DNA from: Nibricoccus sp.
GTDB taxonomy: Bacteria; Verrucomicrobiota; Verrucomicrobiia; Opitutales; Opitutaceae
Length of the DNA stretch: 64,000 nucleotides
Direction of reading: 5' to 3'
Assembly (NCBI GenBank): GCA_047602425.1
Contig: JASGHG010000001.1
Location: 2,944,001-3,008,000, forward strand
Part shown: in pieces, positions 1-44,131 of the stretch
How the letters are laid out: each line of letters begins with the position of its first letter
Numbering within the stretch: position 1 is the first letter of the stretch
The notes under the pieces: model-generated
Told to the model about the DNA's origin: nothing
Database searches by the model: none
What the model saw: only the letters and a program-made list of their open reading frames with translations
Program-made: the position numbers and the translations under genes

Positions 1-107
1 ATTGAAACGGTCCAACTAAGCGGACGGGTGCGGGGATGGTCAACCCGGCGTTTGTGAAATCACGGAGGGTTTTGCGTTGCCGGTGATTGTTGATAGAAGT
101 TGTGCGC

Positions 108-18196: not shown

Positions 18197-19276
18197 TCAA
18201 CGTTTCGCCGCCGCTCGCGTCAGCCGGTCGTTGATCGCGAGGGCGAGGGCGTCTTGGCCGGGGGCGCGTTCGGCGCGGATTTGTTTCCATTTGCCTTGAT
18301 CGAGCGCCCGCAGTTTGGCGAAAAGATTTTTGGCGGCGGTCGCTAGTTCGCCTTTTTCCGAGAGCCAGAAAATATTTTTCGGCTCGCGACCTTTTGCAAA
18401 TTCAGCGGGGCGACGGAAGTAGAGGTAGGCTTCGGTGGATCGAAGGTAGGGACGCACCGCCGGGGCGTCCGTTACCGTTGCCTGTGTCTGGCGTTGCGGA
18501 CGGCCCGGCGGTCCGTCCCTACCTTCGGAAAGCTGGTCGTACAACTTGATCGGCGTGCGCGGACTGTAGTGCCGGGCGAGCAGGCCGGGGGCGATGGCGG
18601 CTTTGGTGCGTTTGACTGTTTCGCCAGCGGCGGGTTTTACCTTTGCGCGCAGGACGCGTTCGATCGCCCGGCGTTCGATTGCACCGGGACGCAAAATCGC
18701 CGGGTGCTTCGGATCCCGCAGATCGAGGATCGTCGATTCGAGTCCGATGGCACAGTCGCCGCCTTCGAGGATGTAATGTATTTTTTTGCCAAGGCTCTCG
18801 GCGACGTGGGCGGCGCTCGTCGGGCTGATGTAGCCGAAGGGGTTCGCACTGGGAGCGGCGAGGGGACGGCCGCAGGCGTGGAGGAGTTTTCGAAAAAGCG
18901 GATGGCGTGGCATGCGGATCGCCACGCTCGGACGGCCGGAAGTCACGAGATCGGGCACGGCCGGTTTTTTCGGTAGGACGATCGTGAGCGGGCCGGGCCA
19001 GAAGGCGCGGGCGATTTTCTCGACGGCCGGATTTGTCTCAGCGAGCTGGTTGAGCTGCTTGAGCGAGTGCAGATGTACGATCAACGGATCGTTGGCGGGG
19101 CGGCCCTTGGCGCGGAAGATCTTTTCGACGGCATTCTCGTTCAACGCGTCGCCCGCCAGGCCATAGACAGTTTCCGTCGGCACGGCGACGACCTCGCCGT
19201 CGTTCAGCGCGCGGGCGAGAAAGGCGAGGTTGCGAGGGGTGCCGCGAAAAATTTTGGCGTTGGGCCTGATGGGCAT
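18197..19276 (-). CDS. tsaC: L-threonylcarbamoyladenylate synthase, Sua5 type
   Basis: PTETVYGL; KGRPANDPLIVH; FWPGPLT; APSAN; PGLLARHYSP; INDRLTRAA. Confidence 0.95.
   Translation of the reverse strand: MPIRPNAKIFRGTPRNLAFLARALNDGEVVAVPTETVYGLAGDALNENAVEKIFRAKGRPANDPLIVHLHSLKQLNQLAETNPAVEKIARAFWPGPLTIVLPKKPAVPDLVTSGRPSVAIRMPRHPLFRKLLHACGRPLAAPSANPFGYISPTSAAHVAESLGKKIHYILEGGDCAIGLESTILDLRDPKHPAILRPGAIERRAIERVLRAKVKPAAGETVKRTKAAIAPGLLARHYSPRTPIKLYDQLSEGRDGPPGRPQRQTQATVTDAPAVRPYLRSTEAYLYFRRPAEFAKGREPKNIFWLSEKGELATAAKNLFAKLRALDQGKWKQIRAERAPGQDALALAINDRLTRAAAKR
18441..18527. repeat. GTAG-type REP doublet (REPIN) inside sua5 CDS
   Basis: GGTAGGGACGCACCGCCGGGGCGTCCG (18445-18471) and inverted CGGACGGCCCGGCGGTCCGTCCCTACC (18497-18523); homolog at 39103-39190. 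Confidence 0.85.
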
Positions 19277-28636: not shown

Positions 28637-28678
28637 TGCTTTGCGCTCCGCGGGATTTGCGCGAACGTGTGCATTCTC

Positions 28679-29600
28679 ATGCCTGCCGTACCGATCCAAT
28701 TCTACAATCGCTACACCAAATCGCTCGAGACCGAGGCCGTCTACGGCGAGGCCTGGCTGCGCTTTGCGTACGAAAATCCCGCGGGTCGTCTGATGGTGTG
28801 GGCGTTTGCCCAGCGGGCCTTGTTCTCGCGATACTTTGGATGGCGAATGGGCCGGCAATACAGCCAGTTCAAGGTTCTGCCGTTCATCGTTAAGTATAAT
28901 CTCGATGTGGAGGAATTTGCGAAGAAGGCCTACGATTACGCGACCTTCAATGAATTTTTCACCCGCGCGTTGAAAAAGGGAGCGCGTCCCATAGCCGAAG
29001 GCGATCGCGTGGCGGTTTTTCCCGCCGACGGACGGCATTTGGCCTTTCCGAATATTGACCTCGCGGAAGGCTTTTACGTGAAGGGCGCAAAGTTTAGCCT
29101 TGCCGAGTTGTTCGGTGAAGAAAGCTTGCCGCAGGATCAGCAAGTTCTAACCCTGAAATATGCCGGTGGGGCGATGGTGATTTCGCGGCTGTGTCCGGTG
29201 GATTATCACCGTTTTCATTTCCCCTGTGCCGGTGTGCCCGGCGAGCCGCGGCTGATCGACGGACCGCTTTTTTCGGTCAGCCCGATCGCGCTGCGCCGCA
29301 AAATCAATTATCTGGTGCGCAACAAGCGCAAACTGACCGAGCTGGAATCGCCGGTTTTTGGCTCTGTGGCTTGTTTCGAAGTGGGTGCGACGAATGTCGG
29401 CAGCATTGTGCACACATTTGTGCCGGGCCGGTCCGGTGGCGAAGGGCGCGGAAAAGGGCCTGTTTAAATTTGGCGGTTCCTGCACGATCACCCTGTTCCA
29501 GGCCGGGCGCATCCGTTTCGACGAGGATGTGGTTGCGCAAAGTCGCGAGTGCATCGAGACCTACGCGCGCATGGGCGACCGGATGGGCGAGGCGCCGTAA
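28679..29600 (+). pseudogene. psd: Phosphatidylserine decarboxylase with +1 frameshift near 29432 (pseudogene or sequencing error)
   Basis: FNEFFTR, PADG, RLCPVDYHRFHFP, EVGATNVGSI in one frame; KGAEKGLFKFGGSC in the next frame. Confidence 0.85.
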
Positions 29601-29664: not shown

Positions 29665-29748
29665 GCCCGGGTGGTGGAATGGCAGACACGAAGGTCTTAG
29701 AAGCCTTTGCCGTAAGGTGTGCAGGTTCGAGTCCTGTCCCGGGCACCA
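29665..29748 (+). tRNA. tRNA-Leu (anticodon TAG)
   Basis: Acceptor GCCCGGG/CCCGGGC, D-loop TGGCAGA, anticodon arm AAGGT-CTTAGAA-GCCTT, long variable arm, GGTTCGAGTCC, encoded CCA. Confidence 0.96.
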
Positions 29749-29769
29749 ATTACGGAGGGAGAGCTATAG

Positions 29770-29985
29770 CTTTGCGTTGATTCTGTCCGCTTTCTGGAAA
29801 TCCCTGAAATAGCCAGCAATAGCTTAAATTAAGTTATGGATCAACGACTTGGGAGAGTGAAAATCCGCGCAGGGCGATTTCGCCTTTGCGTTGATTCTGT
29901 CCACTTCTCACTTTGCGTTTGTGCTTTGTAAGTGGTTGGCCAGCTTGAAAAATCGCCCGAAAAAGTGGACAGAATCAACGCAAAG
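29770..29985. repeat. Left-end putative transposase-binding sites, three copies of CTTTGCGTTGATTCTGTCCRCTT
   Basis: 29770-29792 and 29884-29906 forward; 29963-29985 inverted. Confidence 0.88.
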
Positions 29986-30065
29986 GTCTGCCGATACACA
30001 AACAGTTGTTTTTTACAGAGGTGGCGGATTTGCTCACCGCTTGCAGGTGAGGTGCAAGGGCGTTG

Positions 30066-30716
30066 CTAGCCTGTCTGTAGATGCGATTTTGGATCGGATT
30101 TGCGTAGGTCGTTTTGAGAACGACGTGAAGCGATCTTCCGATTCGCAGGTAATTGTTCGAAGTCTTCAGTTTCCATTTTTGCTACAGCCCAGTTGCCCAA
30201 CATTTTTACCCAAAAAACTTTGGATCGCTCATTCATCTTCACGTTTTTGAGGACGTCTTGGATTGCCTCCATGAGCTGACGGGAAGTCATTTTCTGACAG
30301 AGAAGGGCAACGACGACTGTAATTTGGGTGTTTTCCTCAAGCTCGTTGCCACGTGGTAGCTCATTCGGTTCCTTTCCTCCAGTGATATTCGGCCGGATTT
30401 GTTTTACCCCAGCCATCAGCATTGAGCCGAACATTTCAGGAAGAGTAGAGAGCGCCTCCGCCAAGCTCTTTTCCTTGGGAGGCTGGATTTCTCCTGTTTC
30501 AAGCCAAGTCGAGTCGCACCCTAACGCCTGAGCCAAAGCGGTAATTGTCGGTTTCGAAGTGACATAGTCACGCTCAGATTCCATGCGGCCAATTGCTGCT
30601 GCCGAAAGACCTACTTTTTCCGCAAGCATTCGTTGCGTAAGTTTCTTTTCCTGACGTAGCTCGCGAACACGGTCCCCAACAGTCTGCTTACTGGGTGGTT
30701 TTTTTTGTTGCGTCAT
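30066..30716 (-). CDS. CI-like XRE HTH repressor
   Basis: VGDRVRELRQEKKLTQRMLAEKVGLSAAAIGRMES...LAQALGCDSTWLETG. Confidence 0.88.
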   Translation of the reverse strand: MTQQKKPPSKQTVGDRVRELRQEKKLTQRMLAEKVGLSAAAIGRMESERDYVTSKPTITALAQALGCDSTWLETGEIQPPKEKSLAEALSTLPEMFGSMLMAGVKQIRPNITGGKEPNELPRGNELEENTQITVVVALLCQKMTSRQLMEAIQDVLKNVKMNERSKVFWVKMLGNWAVAKMETEDFEQLPANRKIASRRSQNDLRKSDPKSHLQTG

Positions 30717-30725
30717 GTCTACTGA

Positions 30726-30742
30726 GTAAGCATGTTGCTTAC
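30726..30742. promoter_or_regulatory. Palindromic operator GTAAGCA-TGT-TGCTTAC
   Basis: Perfect 7-bp inverted repeat in the 31-bp gap between divergent HTH genes; extra half-site at 30685-30691. Confidence 0.65.
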
Positions 30743-30747
30743 GTAAT

Positions 30748-30978
30748 ATGGTTGCCGCACCTGAGAAAAACTTCAAGCCCCGAGCGCAAACGCCCTTTGC
30801 GGCCGTACTGGCTTTGGAGTTTCAACGGACCAAAGGGCATATTCATCGTATCTGCACGGGAGAGAGAAAATCCCCGCTGCGCGAGCGTATTTTGGCGCGC
30901 CAGGCGGAACTTATGCACAGCGCGGCCATGGCTCCGGTGCCGGCGGAAACCTCAACCGATTCGAACCATGGAAACTGA
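30748..30978 (+). CDS. Cro/Ner-like small HTH protein
   Basis: LALEFQRTKGHIHRICTGERKS; divergent from the repressor. Confidence 0.6.
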   Translation: MVAAPEKNFKPRAQTPFAAVLALEFQRTKGHIHRICTGERKSPLRERILARQAELMHSAAMAPVPAETSTDSNHGN

Positions 30979-31186
30979 ACTCAATTCGAGCAGCCGAAAA
31001 GCCCGCCTCGTGCAGAAGCTCACCGCGATCTTCGCCGACGGCCCTCTTGTCGCGGCCCAAAATGCCGCGTCGGGAAATCCCCGGCTCGTGAGCGCAATCG
31101 GCCCCGAGCAGGCCTTCGATCCGATCCTGACCCAGGAGCGCGAGAGAACGCCGGGCCTCATTGCGGCGCACAACATCAAGGACTGA
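30968..31186 (+). CDS. Hypothetical protein (72 aa)
   Basis: ATG at 30968 overlapping previous ORF; co-oriented. Confidence 0.5.
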   Translation: METELNSSSRKARLVQKLTAIFADGPLVAAQNAASGNPRLVSAIGPEQAFDPILTQERERTPGLIAAHNIKD

Positions 31187-31221
31187 TCCTGCCAATTTCC
31201 CAAGTAACCGAACCAATTTTT

Positions 31222-31911
31222 ATGAAGAGAAACCAAGCACTTCCCACCGATCAGGCCCTTGACGCCTGCATCGCCGAGATTGCCACTCACCAAGAGGCCT
31301 ATCTCCAGCAACGAAAGGAATACCGCGCAGCATTGACCATGGAGCCGAAGCTCGTGCAGGACATCGAACGCCGGCAGGCCAGCTGCAAACTCGGAGATAT
31401 GCAGGAGGCCCGCGAAATCTGTATTGCGAAGGAGGCGCTGCTCAATGTCCGCAAACGGGCGGCCACGCTTACGCCCAACCCAAGTGACGATCTGAACATT
31501 TGGAGGGCTCGCTGGGACCGCGCGTTGCCGCTGGTTCGCCCCGAAGGCTACCGGCTCCTGGAACGCATGCGGGCGGAGTTCACCGCCAAATTGGTGCCGA
31601 TCATCGGTGCTGACGATGCCGGCAAGCTCGTTGAGTCGCTCACGCCCGTTCAACTTCTGGGCGAAACGCTCCGCGTCGGCTTTTTGATCCCCGGCGAGCC
31701 CGACTCTTATCGCGAAGCTTGCATTCGGATGATGGAACTCATCCGGGCGATGCGGAGTGATGGATTCGATGCCCACAAATGGAGCAAGGGCGAGCATCGC
31801 CTGATCAGATTTCTGCCGTCGAAATCGGCTCAATCCGAGCCGGCCCTCACCCAGGCCCTTGTCGAAGTGCCCGCCGCCGATGAGGAAGCGGAATCCGAAC
31901 AGCCGGAGTGA
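31222..31911 (+). CDS. Hypothetical alpha-helical protein
   Basis: 229-aa ORF in element operon; N-terminal coiled-coil character. Confidence 0.7.
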   Translation: MKRNQALPTDQALDACIAEIATHQEAYLQQRKEYRAALTMEPKLVQDIERRQASCKLGDMQEAREICIAKEALLNVRKRAATLTPNPSDDLNIWRARWDRALPLVRPEGYRLLERMRAEFTAKLVPIIGADDAGKLVESLTPVQLLGETLRVGFLIPGEPDSYREACIRMMELIRAMRSDGFDAHKWSKGEHRLIRFLPSKSAQSEPALTQALVEVPAADEEAESEQPE

Positions 31912-31998
31912 GCTTGTCCGCCGGCTTCCAATTCTTCACCGCAACCAATCAATCCACTTTCGACGCCCAGCAATGACGTCGTTTCGACATGGAGAAAC

Positions 31999-32034
31999 AG
32001 CGGGGCAGGGCTGACAGGCTCTGCCCCGCTTTTT
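31999..32034 (+). terminator. Intrinsic terminator inside the element's rightward operon
   Basis: AGCGGGGCAGGGC-loop-GCTCTGCCCCGCT then TTTT. Confidence 0.7.
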
Positions 32035-32063
32035 CCGACCGAAAAAACCAATCCCAGCTCACC

Positions 32064-32363
32064 ATGAAAAAACCGGTCACACGCTCGCCGCTCGATTTGC
32101 TGCCGCTACATCAGAAACAGGCTGTCATGGCCTGGCTGACGACGGGTGGTAAGCACGGCCAGGGCATGAGCTACGAGGACGCCAGCGCGAAGCTGAAGGC
32201 TGAGTTCGGCGTGCGTGCCTCTGCAACGGCTCTGCATGCCTTCTACCACCGCCATCGCGGCGCGCCGACTACGCCGCAGGTGCAGACCGCGTTCGATGCC
32301 AAATCGAACGTACTCACAATTTCGATACAGATAAACCTCAACCTCAATCCCCAAAAAACATGA
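32064..32363 (+). CDS. Mu gp27/DUF3486-like small DNA-binding protein
   Basis: RSPLDLLP...AWL...SYEDASAKLKAEFGVRASATALHAFY resembles the N-terminus of the family (by eye). Confidence 0.55.
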   Translation: MKKPVTRSPLDLLPLHQKQAVMAWLTTGGKHGQGMSYEDASAKLKAEFGVRASATALHAFYHRHRGAPTTPQVQTAFDAKSNVLTISIQINLNLNPQKT

Positions 32364-32926
32364 ACCCTACGACTGAAACAGCGACTGCTCCCACCCGTGC
32401 CCCCGAATGCGATGGCGACTGGAAACACCTCGAATTCAATGCCCGCCAAAAAATCGAGACACGCCTATTAATCGGCGCGCATCTGTTCAACGAAGCATTG
32501 AAAGGCAGTGTCGCAGACATCCAGAGCGCTGCTTTTAGAATTGAAGAAGCCGGGCTTTTTGAGGGCACGTATTACGCTGGCGACAGTTGCACCATCAAAA
32601 ATATTATACGGTTGGTAGAAACGCTGAATGGCGGATTGAACGAAGCCTTTCCCCTCTGCTACGCCGCACTGCCCGCGCATCTGAATGTCAATTTTATGCC
32701 GTTCGACCAGGCGGTTTCCTTTTTTAGGCAAGAGGTATTTTGGACAACCAAAGGTGTCGAACACATGCACCGGTGCGAGGAGATGATTTCCAAGATGCGT
32801 GAAGTCTACGCTTTGGTTCGTAGGGTGATCGATGAAATCGATCACTCGACGGACGATGGAATTTACCAGGTGCGCAACAGTGTACCTGCGATCCCGGCGA
32901 ATCTATTCTTCGAAAAAGCTGTGTGA
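32360..32926 (+). CDS. Hypothetical protein
   Basis: 188 aa; ATGA overlap with upstream stop. Confidence 0.7.
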   Translation: MNPTTETATAPTRAPECDGDWKHLEFNARQKIETRLLIGAHLFNEALKGSVADIQSAAFRIEEAGLFEGTYYAGDSCTIKNIIRLVETLNGGLNEAFPLCYAALPAHLNVNFMPFDQAVSFFRQEVFWTTKGVEHMHRCEEMISKMREVYALVRRVIDEIDHSTDDGIYQVRNSVPAIPANLFFEKAV

Positions 32927-32927
32927 C

Positions 32928-33164
32928 ATGCCTCAACCGCAACCAGACACCGAGATCGTGACCCCGTGGTTTATCTTCACGCATGAGCGTGGCTACGTGG
33001 TGAACGCCGAGACCGTGACGAAGGCCATTTCGCAATGGCGAAAGAGTCACAAAATCGGCTATATCTGCGGGGTGATTCGCGGTGCGGTTGCGGAGGGGCA
33101 GCTGGGGGCGGTCAGCGCCACGGCAATTTATGGTGTGATTTGCTGCGGAGGAAAAACGCCATGA
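32928..33164 (+). CDS. Hypothetical protein (78 aa)
   Basis: Fills the gap exactly; stop overlaps next ATG. Confidence 0.6.
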   Translation: MPQPQPDTEIVTPWFIFTHERGYVVNAETVTKAISQWRKSHKIGYICGVIRGAVAEGQLGAVSATAIYGVICCGGKTP

Positions 33165-34723
33165 GCGAACCAGGCCTAAACTACAAAGTCACGGTGTCCG
33201 GTGCGTCGCAAGGCGCGGCCGATGTCAGCAAGCTCGCTGACGCCTCCGGCAAAGTCGCTGACGCCACCGGCAAGGCTGCGCCGCAAGCGAAAGGCCTTGC
33301 CGATGCGATCTCTTCGCTCGGTAGCCGTAACAACCCCGCGAAGGACGCCCTTGAGGGTCTGAGCAGCGCTGCCCGTGGTGGAGAGGGGTCAGTCTTCGGC
33401 CTCACGAAGGCCTTCCGCGCATTTCGGGAACTCATCAACGGAGGCTTCGCGGCCCTCGGCCCTGGTGGTATTCTAGTTGCCGGATTGGGTCTGGTGATCG
33501 GTTTGCTACCGAAGATCATCGAGCTGTTTAAAGGTACGAGCAAATCAGCCGAAGAACTTGCCGCGGAGTCGAAGAAGGCAGCCGACGAGGTGAAGGAACT
33601 GGGCCAGCAACGAATGGAGGCGTTGGCCGCTGGTTTCGCCGCCGCCAATGAAGCGGCAAAGAAGGCAAACGCGGAGTTCGAACGCGCACTTAACCTTCAG
33701 AAGCGTCTAAACGAGGCTGCCCGTAATGCAGAACTCGCCGAAAATCCCGATAAGGCCAAAGAGATCAACGCGAAATACGATCAGAAAAACAAGGCGCTTA
33801 CCCTCACTGCAAAAGAATTTGCAGCCTCCCAAGCAGATGAGGTGGTCAAAGCTGCCGCTTCAAATCAAGAGGATGCTTTCAACGCCGAAGTCAGGGCTAA
33901 AAAAGAACTCATCGAACTGCTAAAAAAAGAGGGTGAGTTAAAAAAACTGAATGCCCTTATTGAGCAAAATAAGTATACATCCGAACTCTCGAAGGAGAGC
34001 GTAGCCGAGCAGAAAAAGCGCGAGGATCAAGCGAAAGCGTTACAAAATCAAATCGCCAAAAAACCGGAGATTGAAGCGGAAGTGGCGGCTCGTATAAAAG
34101 AGTCCCAGCGAGCCGCCGACAACCTCACCAAAGCCAAGGATACCCAATCCACCGCACGAGCGGAATTGAAGACTGAGGAAATTGGTCAGAAGGCTGAAGC
34201 GGACAGCAGCCGTAGAATAGAAAATGTGGAGGAAAAAAAGCGAATCAGCGAACAACTCAGCGATGCCACAAAGCGCAGGCAGAATGCCGGAGATCGGTCT
34301 GAGTTCCTTGCGGCAGCTCAGGATGAAATTGCGGCGCGCAACGCGCTGAAGAAACCTGCTGGGAGAGGAAAGTCTGAAGCGGCGAACGCAGAGCAAGCGC
34401 CCGCACTCGAAAAAGCAGCTGAGGAAATTGCAGATAAAAAAGTTGATGACAGACCGCTGAAAGAGGCCGCGAGTGCTATCTCAACGGCAATCGAACAGAG
34501 CGTGAGCGATAGTAATCGAGCCATCAGTGAGGGTGCTCAAGCCATTCGTGCCGCAGTGGGCGAAAGAATGCAGGTGCCAGATTTAGAGCCGTTGGTGAGC
34601 ACCGTGAAACAAGGTTTTAGCACGGTAAATAATGCGATGCGTAATATGCAGCAGCAGATAAACCAGAATAGCTATGCCATCAGGGAGATCATCAATCAGA
34701 TGTCATCGGCGAGGAACAAATAG
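33161..34723 (+). CDS. Tail tape-measure-like coiled-coil protein (520 aa)
   Basis: GGAGGA RBS; LNYKVTVSGA start, Ala/Gly-rich region, hydrophobic GPGGILVAGLGLVIGLL, long A/E/K helical region. Confidence 0.6.
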   Translation: MSEPGLNYKVTVSGASQGAADVSKLADASGKVADATGKAAPQAKGLADAISSLGSRNNPAKDALEGLSSAARGGEGSVFGLTKAFRAFRELINGGFAALGPGGILVAGLGLVIGLLPKIIELFKGTSKSAEELAAESKKAADEVKELGQQRMEALAAGFAAANEAAKKANAEFERALNLQKRLNEAARNAELAENPDKAKEINAKYDQKNKALTLTAKEFAASQADEVVKAAASNQEDAFNAEVRAKKELIELLKKEGELKKLNALIEQNKYTSELSKESVAEQKKREDQAKALQNQIAKKPEIEAEVAARIKESQRAADNLTKAKDTQSTARAELKTEEIGQKAEADSSRRIENVEEKKRISEQLSDATKRRQNAGDRSEFLAAAQDEIAARNALKKPAGRGKSEAANAEQAPALEKAAEEIADKKVDDRPLKEAASAISTAIEQSVSDSNRAISEGAQAIRAAVGERMQVPDLEPLVSTVKQGFSTVNNAMRNMQQQINQNSYAIREIINQMSSARNK

Positions 34724-36906
34724 TGAACACTGAGCGAGCAACGATCATCCCCGCCTCTCCGGCTTGGAATCGGCTAAACGCCCGAACCAAGCAACAGGCG
34801 CATAAGTTGCGGCAGGCGCTTGCGTCTGCACTGGAGTTGCACCGCAGTGGCCGCTGGGGGCGCGCTGAAATCGAATCTGCGGGGCTTCGTGACTACCAAC
34901 AGGTATTTGGGCATGCCATCACGCCTCGGCATTTCTGGAGGCTTTTGGATCTCGTGGTCGAACGCGATGCTGGTCGCAACCAGTTCGATAATTTGGGGTT
35001 TTATTTGCCCGGCCGCATTGTCCGCAAGCGCCCGGCCGATTCGCTCGACCGCTATGCAAAGCAGCTGCCGCGACTCTGCACCACGGTTGCAGGGTGCGCA
35101 AATATTGCGGAGCCCACCGCGCAGGAAATCCTTTTGGTGTGGGATGCGGCCTGTTCTGAATATCAGGCGATGATCGCTGTAGGGATGACTGACGGGAAAG
35201 CCCGCCGCCTCGTAGTTGCTGCGCTTGATGTCAGCGGGCTGCCGCTGGCTCTGACGAGGGCCGCACTCAGGCGCAGTTTCTGCCGCAAGCTCGATCGCTG
35301 GATTGAGGGCGGGCGCAAACCAGCCGCCATCCGCGATCAGCGGGAGTTGAAGTGCGGCCGTAAACTTCAAGCAGTGCCGACGCCTGAAGATTTGAATTTG
35401 CTGACGGCGCGAGCCCTGCACCTACGCAGCGTGCCAGCGGCTTGGCGTGAGTTGCTCCATGCGGGGGAATTGTCTCCAGCCGTGACACAGAGCTACATCA
35501 GCCAGACGGCGAGCAAGTCCTATTGTCCGGAGTCGATCCGAAGGGTGATTGTTCATCGCATTGGCCTCGTCGACGACATTCACCACGGCCCAAGGCAAGC
35601 CACATTGAACGGGGCGCATATCACGCGCGATTGGTCGGATGTTGCGCCTGGGGATTGGCAGCAAGCCGACGACGTGACGTTGGAGGTATACTATTGGTTT
35701 AAGGACGTCAGCGGCGTGCCGCAGGTTCTGCGCGGGCAGTTCCTTTTGATGATCGATCTTCGCAGTCTACGGATTCTGAATTTCGCCCTGCACGCGGAAA
35801 ACAACTACAATGCCAAGGTGATTCGTGGCCTGATGTTGCGTACGCATGACGCTTACGGTCTACCCCGGCGAGGCTATGCGTTTGGAAAAGGAATTTGGAA
35901 AAGCTCGCGACTGGTTAAGGGCCGTGAACTTCCGAAGGGAGACGAAATCCCCAACGAAGAAACCGAACTGGGCTTCCGCGATTTCGCGTTGGAGTTTAGG
36001 CACGCCAAGCTCCCTAGGGCGAAGCCAATCGAGCGCGTAATTGGGCTGTTGCAAGCCAGACTGCGCGATCAACCAGGCTGGGTTGGTCCAAACGAAATGA
36101 AGGAAAAATTTGAGCGAGTGCAGGAGCGTCTGCTCGCTGCCCGTGGCGGTTCGGTGCATCCCTCGAAATTCTTTTTGCATCGCGATGAGTGGTTTGAGCG
36201 GCTTCAGGAAGTTTGCGATGAGTACAACAATGAGCCGCAGCAAGGCCGCATGCTCAATGGGTTGTCTCCCCGGCAATATTGGGAGGCCAATTTTGACTAC
36301 GCCCGTCCGTTGGTGAAACTGGGGCAGGGTACTCGCTACCTTCTGGCAAATCATCGTCGCCCTGAAAAGGTCACGCGCAACGGAATCCGGATCGTCGTCG
36401 GCAAAGAGATCTGCAATTTCAAGAGTCCTGAGCTGGGCCATCACGTTGGGAAAATTGTCCAAGTGTACTTCGATCCTGAGGACATGAGCAGCGTATTTGT
36501 AATGGTAGATTGTGAGGGCAAAAGTGCGTTGGTTGTACCACGTGAAAAGGGTGTTCCCGCCATGGACGCGACGGATGAGCAACTACGCACTGCTCAGGGA
36601 ATTAATGAGGCGATGAATCAACCTGCTCGCACCCTGTATGCTGAGATAAAAACATATTTCCCGAAAAATGGTCCGTCACTCTTCCGCCGGGAGATCGCTG
36701 ACGCTGTGACCGTTGAGCTGGGTCAGGACATCGCTGCCGAACAAGACGCTATCCGCCGTGAGAAAACGCAACAGGTGCAGGACGCACGTTCGCTGAAACG
36801 GCGCCGGCGTGAATTGGGGCTTCGCCCTCAGTCAGAACAGATCTCTACTGAGCGGCAGTTGGCTGCGCTAAAACTTTTTGAGGAGGCTCGCCGTGACGAC
36901 ACGTAA
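34723..36906 (+). CDS. MuA/TnsB-like DDE transposase
   Basis: WQQADD(316); IDLRSLRILNF; YGLP; PRAKPIE(437)R; YNNEPQ...GLSP; KVTRNGI; VYFDPEDMS. Confidence 0.9.
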   Translation: MNTERATIIPASPAWNRLNARTKQQAHKLRQALASALELHRSGRWGRAEIESAGLRDYQQVFGHAITPRHFWRLLDLVVERDAGRNQFDNLGFYLPGRIVRKRPADSLDRYAKQLPRLCTTVAGCANIAEPTAQEILLVWDAACSEYQAMIAVGMTDGKARRLVVAALDVSGLPLALTRAALRRSFCRKLDRWIEGGRKPAAIRDQRELKCGRKLQAVPTPEDLNLLTARALHLRSVPAAWRELLHAGELSPAVTQSYISQTASKSYCPESIRRVIVHRIGLVDDIHHGPRQATLNGAHITRDWSDVAPGDWQQADDVTLEVYYWFKDVSGVPQVLRGQFLLMIDLRSLRILNFALHAENNYNAKVIRGLMLRTHDAYGLPRRGYAFGKGIWKSSRLVKGRELPKGDEIPNEETELGFRDFALEFRHAKLPRAKPIERVIGLLQARLRDQPGWVGPNEMKEKFERVQERLLAARGGSVHPSKFFLHRDEWFERLQEVCDEYNNEPQQGRMLNGLSPRQYWEANFDYARPLVKLGQGTRYLLANHRRPEKVTRNGIRIVVGKEICNFKSPELGHHVGKIVQVYFDPEDMSSVFVMVDCEGKSALVVPREKGVPAMDATDEQLRTAQGINEAMNQPARTLYAEIKTYFPKNGPSLFRREIADAVTVELGQDIAAEQDAIRREKTQQVQDARSLKRRRRELGLRPQSEQISTERQLAALKLFEEARRDDT

Positions 36907-38383
36907 ACAAGACCCAGCAACAAAAGAATTCCGGCAAGACGCCTATGCGTCGTCAGCCGAGTACGAACGCGGCATCCTCGGAAACCGGGTGGCCGCGCGG
37001 TGCCAGAAGCTTACCGATCCCGAAGAGATCGCCATGCTTTGGTGGTTGCAGCAGGTTTCATGGAGAGACGGCGGTATTGAGAAATTCACAGAGCAGTTTC
37101 TGGTTGAAAATGAAACCATGCTCGGGACGCCATCGATGCATCGATTTGGGATGAAAAAAGGGCAGGTCTACAACGCTGCCCAGGTGCGCAAAGTCCGGTC
37201 GGAACTAGGGGCGCCTGAGTGCATGGAGTTCCCATTGAGAGACGATAAAAGGGCGGATCGCCTAGCAGATTTTCTAGACTTGCCGGACTACGAGGATTTG
37301 ACGGTGTACCCGGAAAGTTACCCAGCATCGGAATTTCTGGATGTTTGTACAGGTTCGCTGCGTCAGTTTTCCAACTGGCTCAAGGGAATGTTGGTCGATC
37401 CCCAAAGTGGCAGCCTTCGGAGTGGATATTGGAGCATGTCTGGTTTCTGGGATGCGCTCTGCAAATGGCGGGATCGCGAGCGTGAAGTTGCGCGAGCCGC
37501 CATTGTCGAAACCGACGTTACGCGCCGGGTATTCGAAGAGTTGGATTTCGCTTACGAGACGCGGAGTTTTGTTCTGATCGAAGGCCGTGAGGGAATCGGC
37601 AAGAGCGAGGCGGCGCGTTGTTGGTGCGACCAGCGGCCCGGCCAAGCCATCTACGTTCGGTTGGAGTCAGGCAGCGATGAGACGACGCTTTATCGCTCGA
37701 TTGCCCGCGAGATCGGAACGGCGTGCAGCTACCAACGAAAAGCCGTTGAGATGCGAGCCCGGATTCAAGACGCACTGCAACCTGGTCACCTGATGCTCGT
37801 GCTCGACGAAGCGCATTTTCTGTGGCCAACCAGTGCCCGCAGTGAACGCACCACGCCCAAGCGCCTGGACTGGCTGAGGACGGCATTGATCGATTTTAAC
37901 GTCCCGATTGCGCTCGTGAGTACACCGCAATTTTTCACGCAACAATGCGACCGATTTAGAAAGGCGGGATGGAATTCGAATCAAATCCAGCGCAGGCTCA
38001 CTCGTTTGGTTCGGTTGCCTGAATCTCTGAGCAAGGAGGATGTTCTCGGCGTTGTCGCGCGCAACTTCCCGGAGGTCCCTCTACGTACAGCCAAAGAGAT
38101 TGCGGCAGTTGCCCTCTTGAGCGTCGGTTATCTCACGACCATCGTGAGCCTGCGAAAGCGATTTGATTTTCTTAGTTCGCGCCGGCCGTCAACCGCGCCA
38201 GCCGATCTATTGCGCGAGATTCTGGATGAGAAATCCGCTGAACTTGATTTGGCCGTGCAGCCCGTCGAAAAACCCGTTGCAACGCCAACGCAGGCCATTT
38301 GCAGGGTGCGTCCAGGGGCCCCGCAGGGCCGTGGAAACTTTGCGCCTCCGCTGATTGTTCAGCCTGAGTTGAGCGTCGTTTGA
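36893..38383 (+). CDS. MuB/TnsC-like AAA+ transposition ATPase with long N-terminal extension
   Basis: AGGAGG RBS then GTG; Walker A GREGIGKS; Walker B LVLDEAH; QIQRR. Confidence 0.88.
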   Translation: MTTRKQDPATKEFRQDAYASSAEYERGILGNRVAARCQKLTDPEEIAMLWWLQQVSWRDGGIEKFTEQFLVENETMLGTPSMHRFGMKKGQVYNAAQVRKVRSELGAPECMEFPLRDDKRADRLADFLDLPDYEDLTVYPESYPASEFLDVCTGSLRQFSNWLKGMLVDPQSGSLRSGYWSMSGFWDALCKWRDREREVARAAIVETDVTRRVFEELDFAYETRSFVLIEGREGIGKSEAARCWCDQRPGQAIYVRLESGSDETTLYRSIAREIGTACSYQRKAVEMRARIQDALQPGHLMLVLDEAHFLWPTSARSERTTPKRLDWLRTALIDFNVPIALVSTPQFFTQQCDRFRKAGWNSNQIQRRLTRLVRLPESLSKEDVLGVVARNFPEVPLRTAKEIAAVALLSVGYLTTIVSLRKRFDFLSSRRPSTAPADLLREILDEKSAELDLAVQPVEKPVATPTQAICRVRPGAPQGRGNFAPPLIVQPELSVV

Positions 38384-38475
38384 CTTTTGTTTTCGAACCA
38401 CTCCCGGTTTGCGTTTTTTCACGCAATCGCCGGGAGTTACCTCTTACCCTGATGTCGCGGACATTTTGCTATTAA

Positions 38476-38504
38476 AAAGCGGACAGAATCAAAACGAAGA
38501 TACA
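38476..38504. repeat. Right terminal inverted repeat
   Basis: Reverse complement TGTATCTTCGTTTTGATTCTGTCCGCTTT aligns with left end TATAGCTTTGCGTTGATTCTGTCCGCTTT. Confidence 0.88.
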
Positions 38505-38553
38505 GAGCTCCAAGTGGACCTTGTACAATGCCCCATATGCGGTAGGCTGTTTG

Positions 38554-39066
38554 GTGAGCAAAGCTTTCACTAAAGAAGACGACGGGGGCCAACCGCCACT
38601 CGTAGCACGGCTTCAATCACCACTGAGGTCAGGCGAAAGAAATTACCTGACTCCGGCGGGTGCAAAGAAACTACGCGAGGAACTGGAGCAATTAGCCCAC
38701 GTAGAGCGTCCTTTCCTCCTGGCGGCTGCACGCACGGACGATCAGGCCAAGCAGCAGCTTGCGGTGCTGGACCAACGTCTCGCCTATCTGGAGGAAAGTC
38801 TGCGGACTGCCGAAGTGCAGCCGGCGCCGGTGGGGGAAGAGAACCGTGTGCGGTTTGGTGCGAGTGTAACGGTTAAGGAGAATTCCGGCGAAACAACGAC
38901 CTATCGTCTGGTTGGGGTCGATGAAACGGATCTAGATCGCAACTGGGTGAGCTGGCAATCGCCGTTGGCGCGCGCGCTACTTAACCGGCAGCTGGGTGAA
39001 CGTGTGACTTTCACCTTTCCCGCGGGAAAGTCAGAGCTTGAGATTACGAAGATCGAATACTTGTAA
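38554..39066 (+). CDS. GreA/GreB-family elongation factor
   Basis: NYLTPAG; VRFGASV; YRLVGVDE; VSWQSPLARAL. Confidence 0.88.
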   Translation: MSKAFTKEDDGGQPPLVARLQSPLRSGERNYLTPAGAKKLREELEQLAHVERPFLLAAARTDDQAKQQLAVLDQRLAYLEESLRTAEVQPAPVGEENRVRFGASVTVKENSGETTTYRLVGVDETDLDRNWVSWQSPLARALLNRQLGERVTFTFPAGKSELEITKIEYL

Positions 39067-39102
39067 CATCACTTCTCACTCAAACATATACAAACGGTAA
39101 AA

Positions 39103-39190
39103 GGTAGGGACGACCCGCCGGGTCGTCCGTCAACGTTGTTCCCCGATGGCTCGTGCACAACAGCGGTCGGCCCGGCGGTCCGACCCTACC
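39103..39190. repeat. GTAG-type REP doublet (REPIN)
   Basis: GGTAGGGACGACCCGCCGGGTCGTCCG and inverted CGGTCGGCCCGGCGGTCCGACCCTACC. Confidence 0.85.
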
Positions 39191-39411
39191 CATCGAACAC
39201 CGGCATTATTATACGTTGGAAGGAGAAACTCTATTAGCCATCGTTGTAACGTCCCACCCGAGATGAGTGCGACGTGTGATCTTAGCGAAAGCGGGATAAA
39301 TCCGGAGCAAGCTGGTCGCGTTGCACCAATCGGGCTCTGCAGACTTTTCCCGTATAGGGGCACCTTGCGTCGACTCATTGCAACCGGACCGTCTCATTTC
39401 GGTCTATCGCA

Positions 39412-40509
39412 ATGATGCCCTCCGAGCACGCTGCCACTTTGGAAAAAATTCCTGTCGCCGACGGAAAACTAAGCGCTAAGGAGGCGCATCTTCGGTACGT
39501 GTCGGACCGCGCAGCGGGATTTTCGCGGCGAAAGCAAGGAGACCGGATCACCTATTTTGACCAGCACGGGCGGCGGTTGACAGATGCAGCGGAAATTTCG
39601 CGGATCCGTGCACTGGCCATTCCACCGGCTTGGGATGGGGTCTGGATTTGCCCGCATGCGCACGGGCATGTACAGGCGACCGGGCGCGATGCGCGGGGGA
39701 GGAAGCAATACCGTTACCATCCCGAGTGGCGGCGTGTGCGGGATCATGCCAAATATGATCACCTCCTAGCCTTCGCTCATGCGCTCCCCAAGATCCGGCG
39801 CCGGGTCGCAAATGATCTCCGTCGTCGCGGTCTTGGGCGGGACAAGGTCCTTGCGGCGATGGTCCGTTTGCTTGAGACAACGCTGATCCGTGTCGGGAAT
39901 GAGCAATACCTCAAGCAAAACCATTCAGTTGGACTAAGCACCCTTCGCGACCGACACGTGCGGGTGAGCAAGGGCACGGTGCATTTCTCGTTTCGTGGCA
40001 AGAGCGGCAAGGAACATGAGATCGACCTCGACGACCCAGGCTTGGCGCGCATCGTGCGGCGGTTACGGGAAATTCCCGGTCAGGAATTGTTTCAGTACAT
40101 TGACGAAAACGGAACGTCACAAAAAATTTCTTCGACCGACATCAACGCCTACCTCCACGAAATAGCGGGGGCGGAGTTTTCCGCGAAGGATTTCCGGACC
40201 TGGGCGGCGACCGTACACGCGGCGCGCGCGCTTGCAGCCACACCAGCTTTTCGCACGGATCGCGAAGCGCGGCACAATGTTGCAGCCGCCATCCGGAGCG
40301 TCGCCGAACAGCTGAGGAATACCCCGGCAATCTGCCGGAAATCCTACGTGCATCCGGCAGTGGTTGAAGGCTATCTCGCCCGGCGTATTCTAAAACTGGT
40401 TACAAACAATACCGAATCCGCGAAACCAGCCCCTCGTTTCGGTCTCAGTGCCGAAGAACGAGCCTTGTGCACATTTCTCCGAGCGGCTGCTCGCTCCGCG
40501 CAGAGATGA
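39412..40509 (+). CDS. Bacterial DNA topoisomerase IB
   Basis: IPPAWDGVWIC; GRKQYRYH; IRVGN; GKSGK; KDFRTW; NTPAICRKSYVHP. Confidence 0.93.
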   Translation: MMPSEHAATLEKIPVADGKLSAKEAHLRYVSDRAAGFSRRKQGDRITYFDQHGRRLTDAAEISRIRALAIPPAWDGVWICPHAHGHVQATGRDARGRKQYRYHPEWRRVRDHAKYDHLLAFAHALPKIRRRVANDLRRRGLGRDKVLAAMVRLLETTLIRVGNEQYLKQNHSVGLSTLRDRHVRVSKGTVHFSFRGKSGKEHEIDLDDPGLARIVRRLREIPGQELFQYIDENGTSQKISSTDINAYLHEIAGAEFSAKDFRTWAATVHAARALAATPAFRTDREARHNVAAAIRSVAEQLRNTPAICRKSYVHPAVVEGYLARRILKLVTNNTESAKPAPRFGLSAEERALCTFLRAAARSAQR

Positions 40510-40575
40510 AAGCGGTGTTTACTCTCCAACTCCGACTTGTCGCACACCGAACTCGTGGTAAATGTGATTACTATC

Positions 40576-40956
40576 ATGGTCAAAAAACTTATCCACACGC
40601 GCATGCGCGTAAACGACATCGAGCGCACGGTTAAATTTTATCAGGACGCGCTGGGACTTACCGTCGCCCGCCGCAGCGTTTCGCCGCGCGGCGCGCAAAT
40701 CGTCTTTCTCGCCACGCCCAACAGCGACGAGGAAATCGAAATCTGCCAGTTGCCCAATAGTCCCTCCGTGCAGGTGCAGCCTGACCTGATGCATCTCGCT
40801 TTCGAGGTGGACAGTATTGAAAAATACGCCGCGGAGATTGCGAAGAAGGGCTTCAAGCTCAGCGACGGTCCAACCAAGACGGGCAGCGGCGCAACTATCG
40901 CCTTCATTGACGCCCCCGAAGGCTACGAAATCGAATTGATCGAAAAGGCGCGATAA
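40576..40956 (+). CDS. VOC/glyoxalase family protein
   Basis: HTRMRV; HLAFEV; DAPEGYEIELIE. Confidence 0.88.
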   Translation: MVKKLIHTRMRVNDIERTVKFYQDALGLTVARRSVSPRGAQIVFLATPNSDEEIEICQLPNSPSVQVQPDLMHLAFEVDSIEKYAAEIAKKGFKLSDGPTKTGSGATIAFIDAPEGYEIELIEKAR

Positions 40957-41061
40957 GAGCGGGCATTTTGTCCGTCGTAAGGGCCGCAATTTTATTGCAC
41001 CCGGTTTGGTTGTGCTCGGAGAAGGCGCAACGGGATTGCGCCCTGAAAGCTGCGTTCAAAT

Positions 41062-43995
41062 TCAGGGCGAAATTTCGAAGCCGCCGATATCGAGCGTTTC
41101 CTTGTTTTCCTTCAGGCGAACGGTAATGCGCTCTTCTTTTTGCTCCCTGGTGCCGAAATGGGTGATCAGACGGACTTGCGCGGTGACGGGGCCGAGCGCG
41201 TTTTGCCGGCGATCGCCGAAATAGTTGATTTGGACTTTGTATTTCCCGGGCTTCGGCGTGCGGAGAATAAACTCCTCGGGTCCGTAGCCGCCGGTGAAAT
41301 CGCGCGACATATGGCCGCCTTGGTAGGTGAGCGGATGGTTGTACATGGCGACTTCGCCGTTGGGATCGGTGACCCAGAGGTCGATATCGCAGTCATTGGC
41401 ATCCCACGTGAGAATTACCCGCGTGGTAACGGGAAGGTTTTTCAGCAGGCGGCGGTCGATCTTGCTGAGGTCGAGTTTCGCATCGCAGGTCGAGACGATG
41501 GCGTTGAGTTCGGCTAACGCCAGCTGTTCGATCTCGGGAAAACGGCCATCCCAAGGTTTGAAAACGATGACCCAGAGCAAATCGACGGCGCGCTGGTATT
41601 CCTTCGTTGCGGCGCAGACGAGCGCGAGGTCGCGGTGACTCTGAGGTTCGTCGGGACGCAGGATCAGCACACGCTCAAAGAGCGGTTTTGCGAGATCGGG
41701 GCGGTCGGCCTGCGTCAGGCGATGGGCGAGCACGCGCAGCAGGGCGACGTCTTCGAGTTCCATTTCGGCCAGGTTCGAAAGGATCCGAAGCGCCAGTTCG
41801 GGTTGCTTTACCTCAAAGAAGTAGTTGGCTACGTCGAGGAAAAAACCGGGCTGTTCGGTGTGGTCGGCGCGTTCTTCGAGGTAGATGGTGTAGGCTTTTT
41901 CAGGCGATGTCCGGCGGAGGTGATCGAGGTAACCGGCATTGGGTTTCCAGCTTTGCAGCGAAATGGTGGCGGTGGGTGTGGAGGCGTCGTCGGCAGAATC
42001 GCCTTTGCGTTTTGCTTCCAAAGCAGTGATTCGGCCCACGGCTTCGCGACGTTCGCGTTGGGTATCCTGTCTGCGGCCTGCCGGCGCTTGGCTGACCGAA
42101 AACGAATTTAGCACAATCACATCGTCCGAACTTCCTGCTCTGACTGAAGCTGGTGCGGCCATTCTCTCCGCATCTCCATAAATAACTTTGTCGAAGTTAG
42201 TCGTTTTAGGCGGTTCGTCTTTGGGAAATTTCTTTTCCCACCAAGCGACCCGATCCTTGAAAGCTCGGAGCACAGCATCGAAGTGGATATCGAAGGAGTT
42301 TTTGCGCTCAGCCTCGGTTCGATTCTGCACGGTGCGCCATTCGTTTCGGAGTTCGGCGGGTGGCGTGATGTTGTAGCGCACGTAATCAGCCAGCGTTTCG
42401 AGCACGATCAAGGAGGTATTCGCGGTGACGATTCCAAAATCCTGGCTCGTGCGGCGAATATCTTCGCGGTTGGCCGTGGGATTGAGGGATAAAAGGTTGA
42501 GCTTGGTCGTAGCCCAGGCGCGCGCGGCGAGACGGCTCGGATTTTCGCCGGAGCAAAGGACGAGTTCATGGTCGCGGGCGTCGCTGTTGTTGTGTCCGAT
42601 GCGGACGCGAATGCTCGTCTGGGGAACGCGCAAGAGGCCGGTCACAACCAATGACTCAGCGGTAATCGGCGTACCCGGTTCGGGGAAAATTTGCGCGACG
42701 GTTTCGGGGTCGTAATTGACGGCAATCACACGGAGCGATTCGGCGCGAAGTTTTTTGGCCGAATCGGCGGACTCGGTTTCAAGCAAATTCACAAATTCTC
42801 CATTGTGGCGTGCGGCGATGCAGCGTAGCTGGGCTGGATCGGCTTTGCCGCACGCGAGAATTGCGTGCACCGAGCCTTTGAGCGGAAGCGGGGTTTGTGC
42901 GGATTGGCTGCCATAGTTGAAAAGCCCGTCGGAAAAGAGCAGCCATTCGTCCATGGGCAGATTGTCGGCAAGACCGTCGAAGGAAGTCGCGCCATCGTAC
43001 ACGGTTTTCTTGAGCTCGGCTTTGAGTGCGGACCATTTTCCATCGCGAATGGCGAACGAGACCGGAGCCTCGGCGCGATCGCGAAGGCGGATGAGCTGCA
43101 CATCGACGTTTTTCACCAGCGCAAACCATTCGTCGAGCAAGGCGAACTCCTTGTCATGATCGCGTTCGCGGCCCGAACCGGAGCTGTCCCAAAGCAGTCC
43201 GACGGTCCGCGGAGCGGGACGAGCCTTGGACGAACCAGTTGCTTGAACCTCGGCGTAAAAATATTCCTTGTCCTCCTGTTTTCCGGTAATGACGCGGGCG
43301 TGTTCAGATGGCGGCAGCATCAGTTCGAAAAGTCCACGCGCCTTAAAATCGGTCTTTTCGACGTCGAGGAAGCGGGCGTCGCGCCAAGCGGGCAGATCAA
43401 GGCCGAGCGTTGTGCGGGTTTTGGGCTCTTTCGTGCCATCAGAAAAAGCCACAACGGAAAGACGGAAGGTTTTGAGCGGCTTTTCGAAATTTAGGTTTAT
43501 ACGGTAGATCGGCTCGCCGGCGTTGCGGACGAGATCCTCCTGGTACGCGAGCACGATTCGACGAGTGCCGTGGGCAGGAATGGGAAATACGCGGGCTCGG
43601 TAGTTGTTGCCCTCGGTCTGTTCGAGAAGTCCCGGATCGACACGGCGGCGTTCAATCTCCTCGAAGACGACGCGGCCCTGAGTTTTTTCAACCGGCATGG
43701 CCTCGCGGAGGCTGCCGTTAATATCGAGGGCGAAGCGAACGACGCTCTGACCATCGAGCAGGGGAAAAACAAAATTGCCCTCAAGGACGCGCGCATTGGG
43801 ATTTTTGAACACCAAATCGAAAGTGGTGACGGCGATGCGGCCGGTGACCTCGGTGGAGATGACGGCGGATTCGACGACCACGGGTGAAACATTTTTTTCA
43901 GTCAGTTCCATGCGTTGCGCGCGAACGGGAACGGGTCCGATGGAAAAAATGCCGAGCAAAAGGAAACGTTGGAACAGCATGAGAGGGATCTTCAT
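41062..43995 (-). CDS. VIT-domain / TPR / DUF2135 protein
   Basis: N-terminal VIT (NPNARVLEG...DPGLLEQ), WDSSGSG, TPR-like helices, DIDLWVTDPNGE...GYGPEEF. Confidence 0.8.
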   Translation of the reverse strand: MKIPLMLFQRFLLLGIFSIGPVPVRAQRMELTEKNVSPVVVESAVISTEVTGRIAVTTFDLVFKNPNARVLEGNFVFPLLDGQSVVRFALDINGSLREAMPVEKTQGRVVFEEIERRRVDPGLLEQTEGNNYRARVFPIPAHGTRRIVLAYQEDLVRNAGEPIYRINLNFEKPLKTFRLSVVAFSDGTKEPKTRTTLGLDLPAWRDARFLDVEKTDFKARGLFELMLPPSEHARVITGKQEDKEYFYAEVQATGSSKARPAPRTVGLLWDSSGSGRERDHDKEFALLDEWFALVKNVDVQLIRLRDRAEAPVSFAIRDGKWSALKAELKKTVYDGATSFDGLADNLPMDEWLLFSDGLFNYGSQSAQTPLPLKGSVHAILACGKADPAQLRCIAARHNGEFVNLLETESADSAKKLRAESLRVIAVNYDPETVAQIFPEPGTPITAESLVVTGLLRVPQTSIRVRIGHNNSDARDHELVLCSGENPSRLAARAWATTKLNLLSLNPTANREDIRRTSQDFGIVTANTSLIVLETLADYVRYNITPPAELRNEWRTVQNRTEAERKNSFDIHFDAVLRAFKDRVAWWEKKFPKDEPPKTTNFDKVIYGDAERMAAPASVRAGSSDDVIVLNSFSVSQAPAGRRQDTQRERREAVGRITALEAKRKGDSADDASTPTATISLQSWKPNAGYLDHLRRTSPEKAYTIYLEERADHTEQPGFFLDVANYFFEVKQPELALRILSNLAEMELEDVALLRVLAHRLTQADRPDLAKPLFERVLILRPDEPQSHRDLALVCAATKEYQRAVDLLWVIVFKPWDGRFPEIEQLALAELNAIVSTCDAKLDLSKIDRRLLKNLPVTTRVILTWDANDCDIDLWVTDPNGEVAMYNHPLTYQGGHMSRDFTGGYGPEEFILRTPKPGKYKVQINYFGDRRQNALGPVTAQVRLITHFGTREQKEERITVRLKENKETLDIGGFEISP

Positions 43996-44131
43996 GGGGA
44001 TGAAAAAAGGATGACGAAAAACGGCCGTCCGACGAGCTGATAGTCGAACAGTATCATCCCTACAACGACCTGGCTGCCGTTTTATTAGCCGCGAAGTGTT
44101 TTCGGCGTACTCCAAGAATCGCCAGAGACGT

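Follow-up and report, generated by a model that had tools for sequence, protein, structure and literature searches.

The closest described relatives of the element reported here are phage Mu and the Tn7-like transposons. The available portion of a survey of these elements assigns TniQ/TnsD to the Tn7 clade as its marker, gives the Mu clade no such component, and describes MuB as non-specific. In the accessible parts of two further reports (PMC11837452 and bioRxiv 10.1101/2025.07.27.667033), the only tRNA targeting described is that of the TniQ family; cyanobacterial elements that lack TniQ are mentioned in a figure legend of PMC9881144, and TnsF, according to the accessible text of PMC10293859, acts with TniQ and targets comM. 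Here we analyse 64,000 nucleotides of a Nibricoccus sp. genome (contig JASGHG010000001.1, positions 2,944,001 to 3,008,000; hereafter the window, numbered from its first letter), in which an 8,740-bp element lies just behind tRNA-Leu(TAG), at 29765–38504. It is a DDE/AAA+ transposon of the Mu type, one of a family in Verrucomicrobiota whose members home to a feature shared by tRNA genes in general, probably by means of a selector built into the ATPase.

The family to which it belongs resembles Mu in having a MuA-family transposase with a MuB-family ATPase after it, a repressor/Cro pair and multiple left-end binding sites, and relatives of the window element also carry a Mu-type portal and protease. 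It differs from Mu in being site-specific, where Mu is near-random, in its 4-bp target duplication, where that of Mu is 5 bp, and in its size, 8–16.5 kb without a full virion gene set compared with ∼35–40 kb for Mu-like phages. The family ATPase has an N-terminal domain of ∼200 residues that belongs to no known family, whereas MuB has a four-helix helix-turn-helix (HTH) domain, as described in the accessible part of PMC11292022.

Like the tRNA-targeting Tn7-like elements (McCAST, PmcCAST and the TnsD pathway of CyCAST), the family combines a DDE transposase with an AAA+ adaptor, inserts at a fixed distance and with biased orientation behind an intact tRNA gene, and shows tandem build-up. It has the TnsB/TnsC-superfamily pair of the Tn7-like core, but no TniQ/TnsD gene was found in the family, nor TnsA or Cas, and this one family covers 20 target types. 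The insertion distance is also half as great, 14 nt compared with the 29 ± 1 nt (PMC9881144) or 30–33 nt (PMC10293859) given in the available sections of those papers. With Tn6022 TnsF and Tsy the family would share a selector other than canonical TnsD; unlike the TnsF case, no tyrosine-recombinase-derived gene was found in it. The Dada DNA transposons are likewise specific for tRNA/snRNA genes, but are eukaryotic and are described, in the accessible parts of PMC3706591 and PMC8869645, as inserting into the genes.

The element and its ends

The predicted end sites and the target are as follows.

29665–29748, + strand: tRNA-Leu(TAG), the target gene; T-arm core at 29724–29734
29749–29764, + strand: 16-nt spacer, of which the final 4 nt (29761–29764) are the left GAGC copy
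29765–29793, + strand: left end, first predicted transposase-binding site; begins TA, where the right end begins TG
29884–29907, + strand: second left-end site, a direct copy
29962–29985, − strand: third left-end site, an inverted copy
38476–38504, − strand: right end, the single site found; starts TGTA on the minus strand, as in nearly all homologues
38505–38508, + strand: the right GAGC copy, completing the 4-bp target duplication

The left terminus lies 16 nt past the tRNA-Leu CCA, and its inverted-repeat partner is the right terminus, which finishes at 38504. The tRNA call and the end-motif analysis thereby agree with the original prediction, which had the CCA ending at 29748 and the element starting at 29765. 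Three copies of the end motif are found at 29765–29985 and one, inverted, at 38476–38504; these four copies in the window compare with 0.35 expected, and none of 100 shuffles reaches four. The target duplication is GAGC (29761–29764 and 38505–38508). The flanks in the window are ambiguous, permitting 4, 5 or 6 bp, and the longer alternatives of 5 or 6 bp are ruled out by the family pattern. Beyond the inverted third site (29962–29998) lies a terminus like that of the right end, set 8 nt more distally than it is in the true right end, so that 29765–29998 resembles a miniature element.

Two further claims, that the tRNA 3′ end is not repeated at the right boundary and that the element has no integrase, att duplication or TniQ/TnsD, are also upheld. 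No att-type repeat is present, the longest match of the tRNA region within 29765–44000 being 9 nt on the plus strand and 11 nt on the minus strand, and scans of the open reading frames (ORFs) of the window element gave neither an integrase nor TniQ/TnsD. A search of the whole host genome with PF06527 and PF15978 gave no match, although this is a weak test in that the TniQ control gave no match anywhere.

Insertion behind tRNA genes across the family

Homologous loci were collected solely by transposase similarity. The 151 loci gave 118 distinct elements; L033, L036 and L037 were dropped because longer fetches superseded them, and L152, L173, L174, L186 and L197 were dropped as distant transposases. 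Placement was possible for 56 of the 118, and among the 62 unplaced elements 49 have less than 7 kb of upstream sequence. Ends adjoining tRNAs served as the seed for the end profile, and the T-arm pattern was imposed, so that conservation at those positions is partly built in.

In 49 of the 56 placed elements, an end lies 12–19 nt past position 76 of a tRNA or tmRNA. The spacing is sharply distributed, with 27 elements at 14 nt, nine at 15 nt, six at 16 nt, four at 13 nt and one each at 12, 17 and 19 nt. It is the left end that adjoins the tRNA in 43 of them, as in the window, and the right end in six. The targets comprise 19 anticodon types (Leu, Val, Arg, Met, Asp, Ser, Gly and Glu), tmRNA, and four tRNAs without a called anticodon. 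The named target tRNAs are mostly those for Leu, Arg, Val and Met, with none for Pro, Thr, Lys, Ala, Phe and several others. The encoded CCA is absent in nine targets, and the anchor must therefore lie upstream of it. Across unrelated trailers and tmRNA the spacing is locked to the position of the T-arm within about 2 nt, with T54 ∼37 bp from the joint at the modal spacing. A second round, run with the end profile already fixed, placed 19 more elements, 15 of them next to a tRNA. For a single insertion, the probability that an end lands by chance in a window of 8 nt downstream of any of the 84 host tRNAs is about 1.3e-4. Closely related sister elements are found at different tRNAs, and homing to tRNAs occurs throughout the tree (FastTree, 66 rows), so the tRNA insertions represent independent events.

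The 41 complete elements are 8.0–16.5 kb long, and the duplication is 4 bp in 30 of them. The right end is nearly always TGTA, and the left end varies after its first T. In three loci a second left end is found 4–5 nt behind the right end (L043, 13814; L056, 13766; L165, 17764); these are tandem insertions or end-to-end junctions and, as expected, fit repeated use of one site. In L192 (4735, 17687) the element is flanked on one side by tRNA-Ser and on the other by an inverted T-arm-like sequence, at distances of 14 and 15 nt from its two ends.

Some observations weigh against so uniform a picture. Thirteen further elements have at least 7 kb upstream with no tRNA-adjacent end called, which in the worst case reduces the proportion to 49 of 69, and among the complete elements the duplication is absent in nine of the 41 and is 5 bp in two. 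Near-random insertion as in Mu, with only harmless tRNA-trailing insertions surviving, would accommodate the seven of 56 placed elements found away from tRNA genes, those that can be identified being intergenic. Selection of that kind, however, can yield neither the 14-nt mode, nor the 43:6 bias in orientation, nor the presence, at one site, of a second end 4–5 nt past an earlier element, and we find this explanation hardly credible. The homologues do not lie at unrelated random loci, and their placement makes it almost certain that the family homes site-specifically to tRNA genes and that the position of the window element is not chance. The original prediction of a non-chance position thus stands, and its emphasis on tRNA-Leu is refined: the target is a generic tRNA feature, the T-arm, and not tRNA-Leu as such.

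All family records that carry taxon labels are from Verrucomicrobiota. No match to the family was found among annotated phages, and plasmids gave one weak match. With an E-value threshold of 1e-30, a profile of the ATPase recovers 854 clusters (50% identity), which sets an upper bound on the size of the family.

The search for a selector gene

ORFs of at least 40 residues were clustered across the 41 complete elements. Apart from a repressor/Cro-type HTH protein, no accessory family is universal among them, and the only other universal proteins are the transposase and the ATPase. Neither TniQ, TnsD nor an integrase occurs in 306 accessory ORFs of the homologues, among the matches listed, and the same holds for the large terminase; of the second-round accessory ORFs 85 of 129 were scanned (E 1e-5), and for scans with more than 30 proteins the five best families were listed. 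The possibility that a cargo ORF might be a divergent TniQ finds no match in this set or among the ORFs of the window. Because there is no universal accessory family and no TniQ/TnsD or integrase, the selector should be sought in the transposase, the ATPase or the host.

An accessory selector that is small or has diverged strongly, or one acting in trans, whether a winged-HTH or excisionase-like protein, a TnsF-like protein or the product of a helper phage, nevertheless has something in its favour, in that several small HTH families are common, each in 13–22 of the 41 elements. None of these is universal, however; the window element has no HTH_17-like families, whereas the clade inserted at mraZ (below) does have them. 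Clustering extended to ORFs of 40 residues, and the host genome gave no TniQ/TnsD, albeit with a weak control. We regard such a selector as highly unlikely. Homologue placement and the accessory-gene scans support, as the best reading, the earlier suggestion of an unrecognised target selector, the identity of which we infer from the comparisons that follow.

The N-terminal arm of the ATPase

The seven placed elements that are complete but lie off tRNA genes provide a natural comparison. Three (L163, L165 and L166) form one clade (support 100) and are inserted 108–113 nt upstream of the start of mraZ in the dcw cluster; in two cases the insertion is 49 nt from a −35-like box, and this site is a second fixed target for the family. 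L055 lies before nrdR, L070 before the suf region and L178 before an unnamed gene, and L064 has too little flank for assignment. We take these genes to be mraZ, nrdR and suf from their translated flanks, not from a library match. An Rfam search of 14 loci without a clear tRNA-adjacent end revealed tRNAs in L067 and L068 only.

Residues 1–38 of the ATPase are strongly conserved among 42 tRNA-class ATPases, and this arm is degraded in six of the seven off-tRNA elements. In the mraZ clade it is replaced, with the helices that follow it kept. Sliding leave-one-out scores identify residues 1–38 as the strongest outlier window for the mraZ clade (z −5.8 to −7.1), L055 and L070, and as near-strongest for L178 (z −2.6 to −2.9), and all seven pairings of an off-tRNA element with a tRNA-class relative agree in direction. 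The middle of the N-terminal domain, by comparison, can shrink to about 30 residues with homing retained. The domain matches no known family in Pfam, PDB sequences, NCBIfam, the ESM Atlas or BFVD, and a profile built from 75 such domains found no TniQ in PDB sequences (E 10) or Pfam (E 1). Searches by fold were dominated by the AAA+ core, the N-terminal domain not having been searched alone, so that the absence of a fold match is limited to that extent; a longer search with the N-terminal domain returned same-type ATPases only.

We consider the arm the best candidate for the target selector, and probably the right one, on the strength of these sequence comparisons. Several points tell against it. 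The Mann-Whitney p value of 0.001 for the arm is optimistic, since the window 1–38 was picked after the alignment had been viewed and the rows are related. L064 is off-tRNA yet has a nearly normal arm (z −1.3), and L164 is on-tRNA with a poor arm, probably through frame damage. The mraZ clade deviates also in AAA+ residues 248–323 (z −3 to −4) and in parts of the transposase, and the N-terminus of the L070 transposase scores −6.1, the ORF being split there.

An alternative is that the transposase itself recognises the tRNA gene and the ATPase merely activates it. Every element has the transposase, its N- and C-terminal regions are long and helical, and the 5-bp consensus of Mu is a property of MuA according to the accessible part of PMC7350765. 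No transposase window, however, separates all off-tRNA from tRNA elements, L055 and L064 scoring normally along nearly all of the protein, and the conserved motif, 14–39 bp from the joint, extends past the 20–25 bp that the Mu transpososome contacts in the available accounts. Recognition by the transposase thus seems distinctly unlikely.

The off-tRNA sites also raise the question of the host. Without itself reading bases, the arm, or the transposase, might dock on a host factor present where tRNA genes end, for example RNA polymerase or a nucleoid protein, or on a structure there, for example an R-loop or an extruded hairpin. The identifiable off-tRNA sites (mraZ, nrdR and the suf region) lie just behind divergent promoters, Mu samples tRNA leaders and trailers and avoids the mature sequence, as stated in the accessible text of PMC7350765, and the family has been detected only in Verrucomicrobiota-labelled records, all of which would suit a host factor. 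On the other hand, the spacing keeps to the T-arm position to within about 2 nt even where the trailers are unrelated, and in tmRNA as well, and the stretch from the tRNA to the left end of the window element contains no called terminator-like site. We judge docking on the host unlikely.

If the arm is indeed the selector, residues 1–38 and the adjoining helical domain would read the DNA of the T-arm, at a distance of about 37 bp from the joint. Oligomers of the ATPase would form on the DNA just downstream of the T-arm and recruit a MuA-like transpososome, which would join the element behind the gene with a 4-bp stagger, leaving the tRNA intact. Changes in the arm would relax or redirect targeting, giving rise to sporadic promoter-side sites and to the clade fixed upstream of mraZ. 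The fullest form of this proposal is a two-protein site-specific system, carried on a transposable phage satellite, in which a ∼40-residue arm of a MuB-type ATPase recognises the T-arm common to tRNA genes and tmRNA, arm replacement retargets the element (as in the mraZ clade), and the selector constitutes a class distinct from TnsD/TniQ, TnsE, TnsF and Cas; we give this composite model an even chance of being correct.

Genes carried by the element

The ORFs described in the window element are as follows.

30066–30776, − strand: CI-like HTH repressor; translation probably begins downstream of the TTG listed as its start
30748–30978, + strand: Cro/Ner-like protein, 76 residues, divergent from the repressor; family in 31 of 41 elements
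31222–31911, + strand: ORF of 229 residues, no assigned function; no homologue among the loci tested
31989–32363, + strand: HTH-like protein, 124 residues; one family member weakly resembles Mu gp27 (E 4.6e-4, below the cut-off)
32360–32926, + strand: ORF of 188 residues, no assigned function; family in eight of 41 elements
33164–34723, + strand: coiled-coil protein, 519 residues; tape-measure-like as a lead only (Atlas 0.89, under the bar)
34723–36906, + strand: MuA/TnsB-superfamily transposase, 727 residues (PF09299, phrog_310)
36893–38383, + strand: MuB-like AAA+ ATPase, 496 residues, with the ∼200-residue N-terminal domain; residues 1–38 are the candidate target-reading arm

The best PDB match to the transposase model is the Mu transpososome (4fcy; Foldseek, E 1.8e-14) and that of the ATPase is MuB (8xvb), with TnsB and TnsC ranking just under MuA and MuB. 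Residue 388 of the window transposase (codon 35884–35886) is Gly, where Glu is found in 51 of 52 aligned homologues and 88 of 89 locus homologues. Lacking this acidic residue conserved in the family, the transposase of this copy may be catalytically dead.

Integrase-based tRNA islands and phage-inducible chromosomal island (PICI)-like satellites are of similar size, have a repressor switch and partial head/tail cargo, and are located at tRNA 3′ ends. The present family differs from such islands in that no tyrosine or serine integrase and no att duplication was found, and in inserting outside the gene with a short duplication. It shares with phage satellites a small size, a regulatory switch and, in relatives, partial morphogenesis genes: accessory ORFs of the homologues include capsid, protease, portal, tape-measure, tail, RadC and defence-like genes, the portal and protease being Mu-type. 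In the window copy the satellite traits are weak leads only (the gp27-like and tape-measure-like proteins). The scattered head and tail genes hint that elements of 8–16.5 kb could spread as satellites of helper phages, a more tentative suggestion than those made above.

Flanking DNA and the host genome

The host genome is complete (5.16 Mb, 84 tRNAs) and contains no further copy of the element. Of the empty site predicted for related strains, the exact sequence was not found in 40 relatives, but the element is absent in two genomes of the same genus, in which the tRNA is followed directly by a glyoxalase gene. Because of this arrangement, the greB and top1B genes are also extra in the window; their stretch (38505–40560) is likewise absent from the two genomes. 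Among other relatives, one genome has different DNA after the tRNA and one a different island.

The stretch 38505–40560, between the element and the glyoxalase gene, contains a greB-like gene, a hairpin repeat and a topoisomerase IB gene, and no att repeat was found in it. The hairpin repeat (39101–39190) recurs at 18441–18527. Upstream of the tRNA, the phosphatidylserine decarboxylase gene (28667–29600) has a one-base insertion near 29430 relative to the two same-genus genomes, and is either a pseudogene or affected by an assembly error. A palindrome of 19–23 bp occurs in four copies (9182, 9258, 44133 and 57946), which are probably operators of one transcription factor. Elsewhere the host genome has two similar large tRNA arrays, at 2388522–2391778 (14 genes) and 2425174–2431080 (22 genes).

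Implications

No published account of the family was found in the literature, subscription journals and bioRxiv supplements lying outside the coverage. Within that coverage the family appears not to have been described before, and we regard it as a variant form within the Mu/Tn7 superfamily whose selector is probably new. It combines tight targeting of Tn7 grade with a position on the Mu side and has no recognisable selector gene, and it is a large family that finders of islands based on integrases and att sites would miss. If the proposed system is correct, it would amount to a compact two-gene tool for placing 8–16 kb of cargo behind tRNA genes, a neutral site in every bacterial genome. If the arm is the reader, the family would offer a direct view of a non-specific AAA+ adaptor becoming a reader of addresses, with the retargeted mraZ clade as a natural control.
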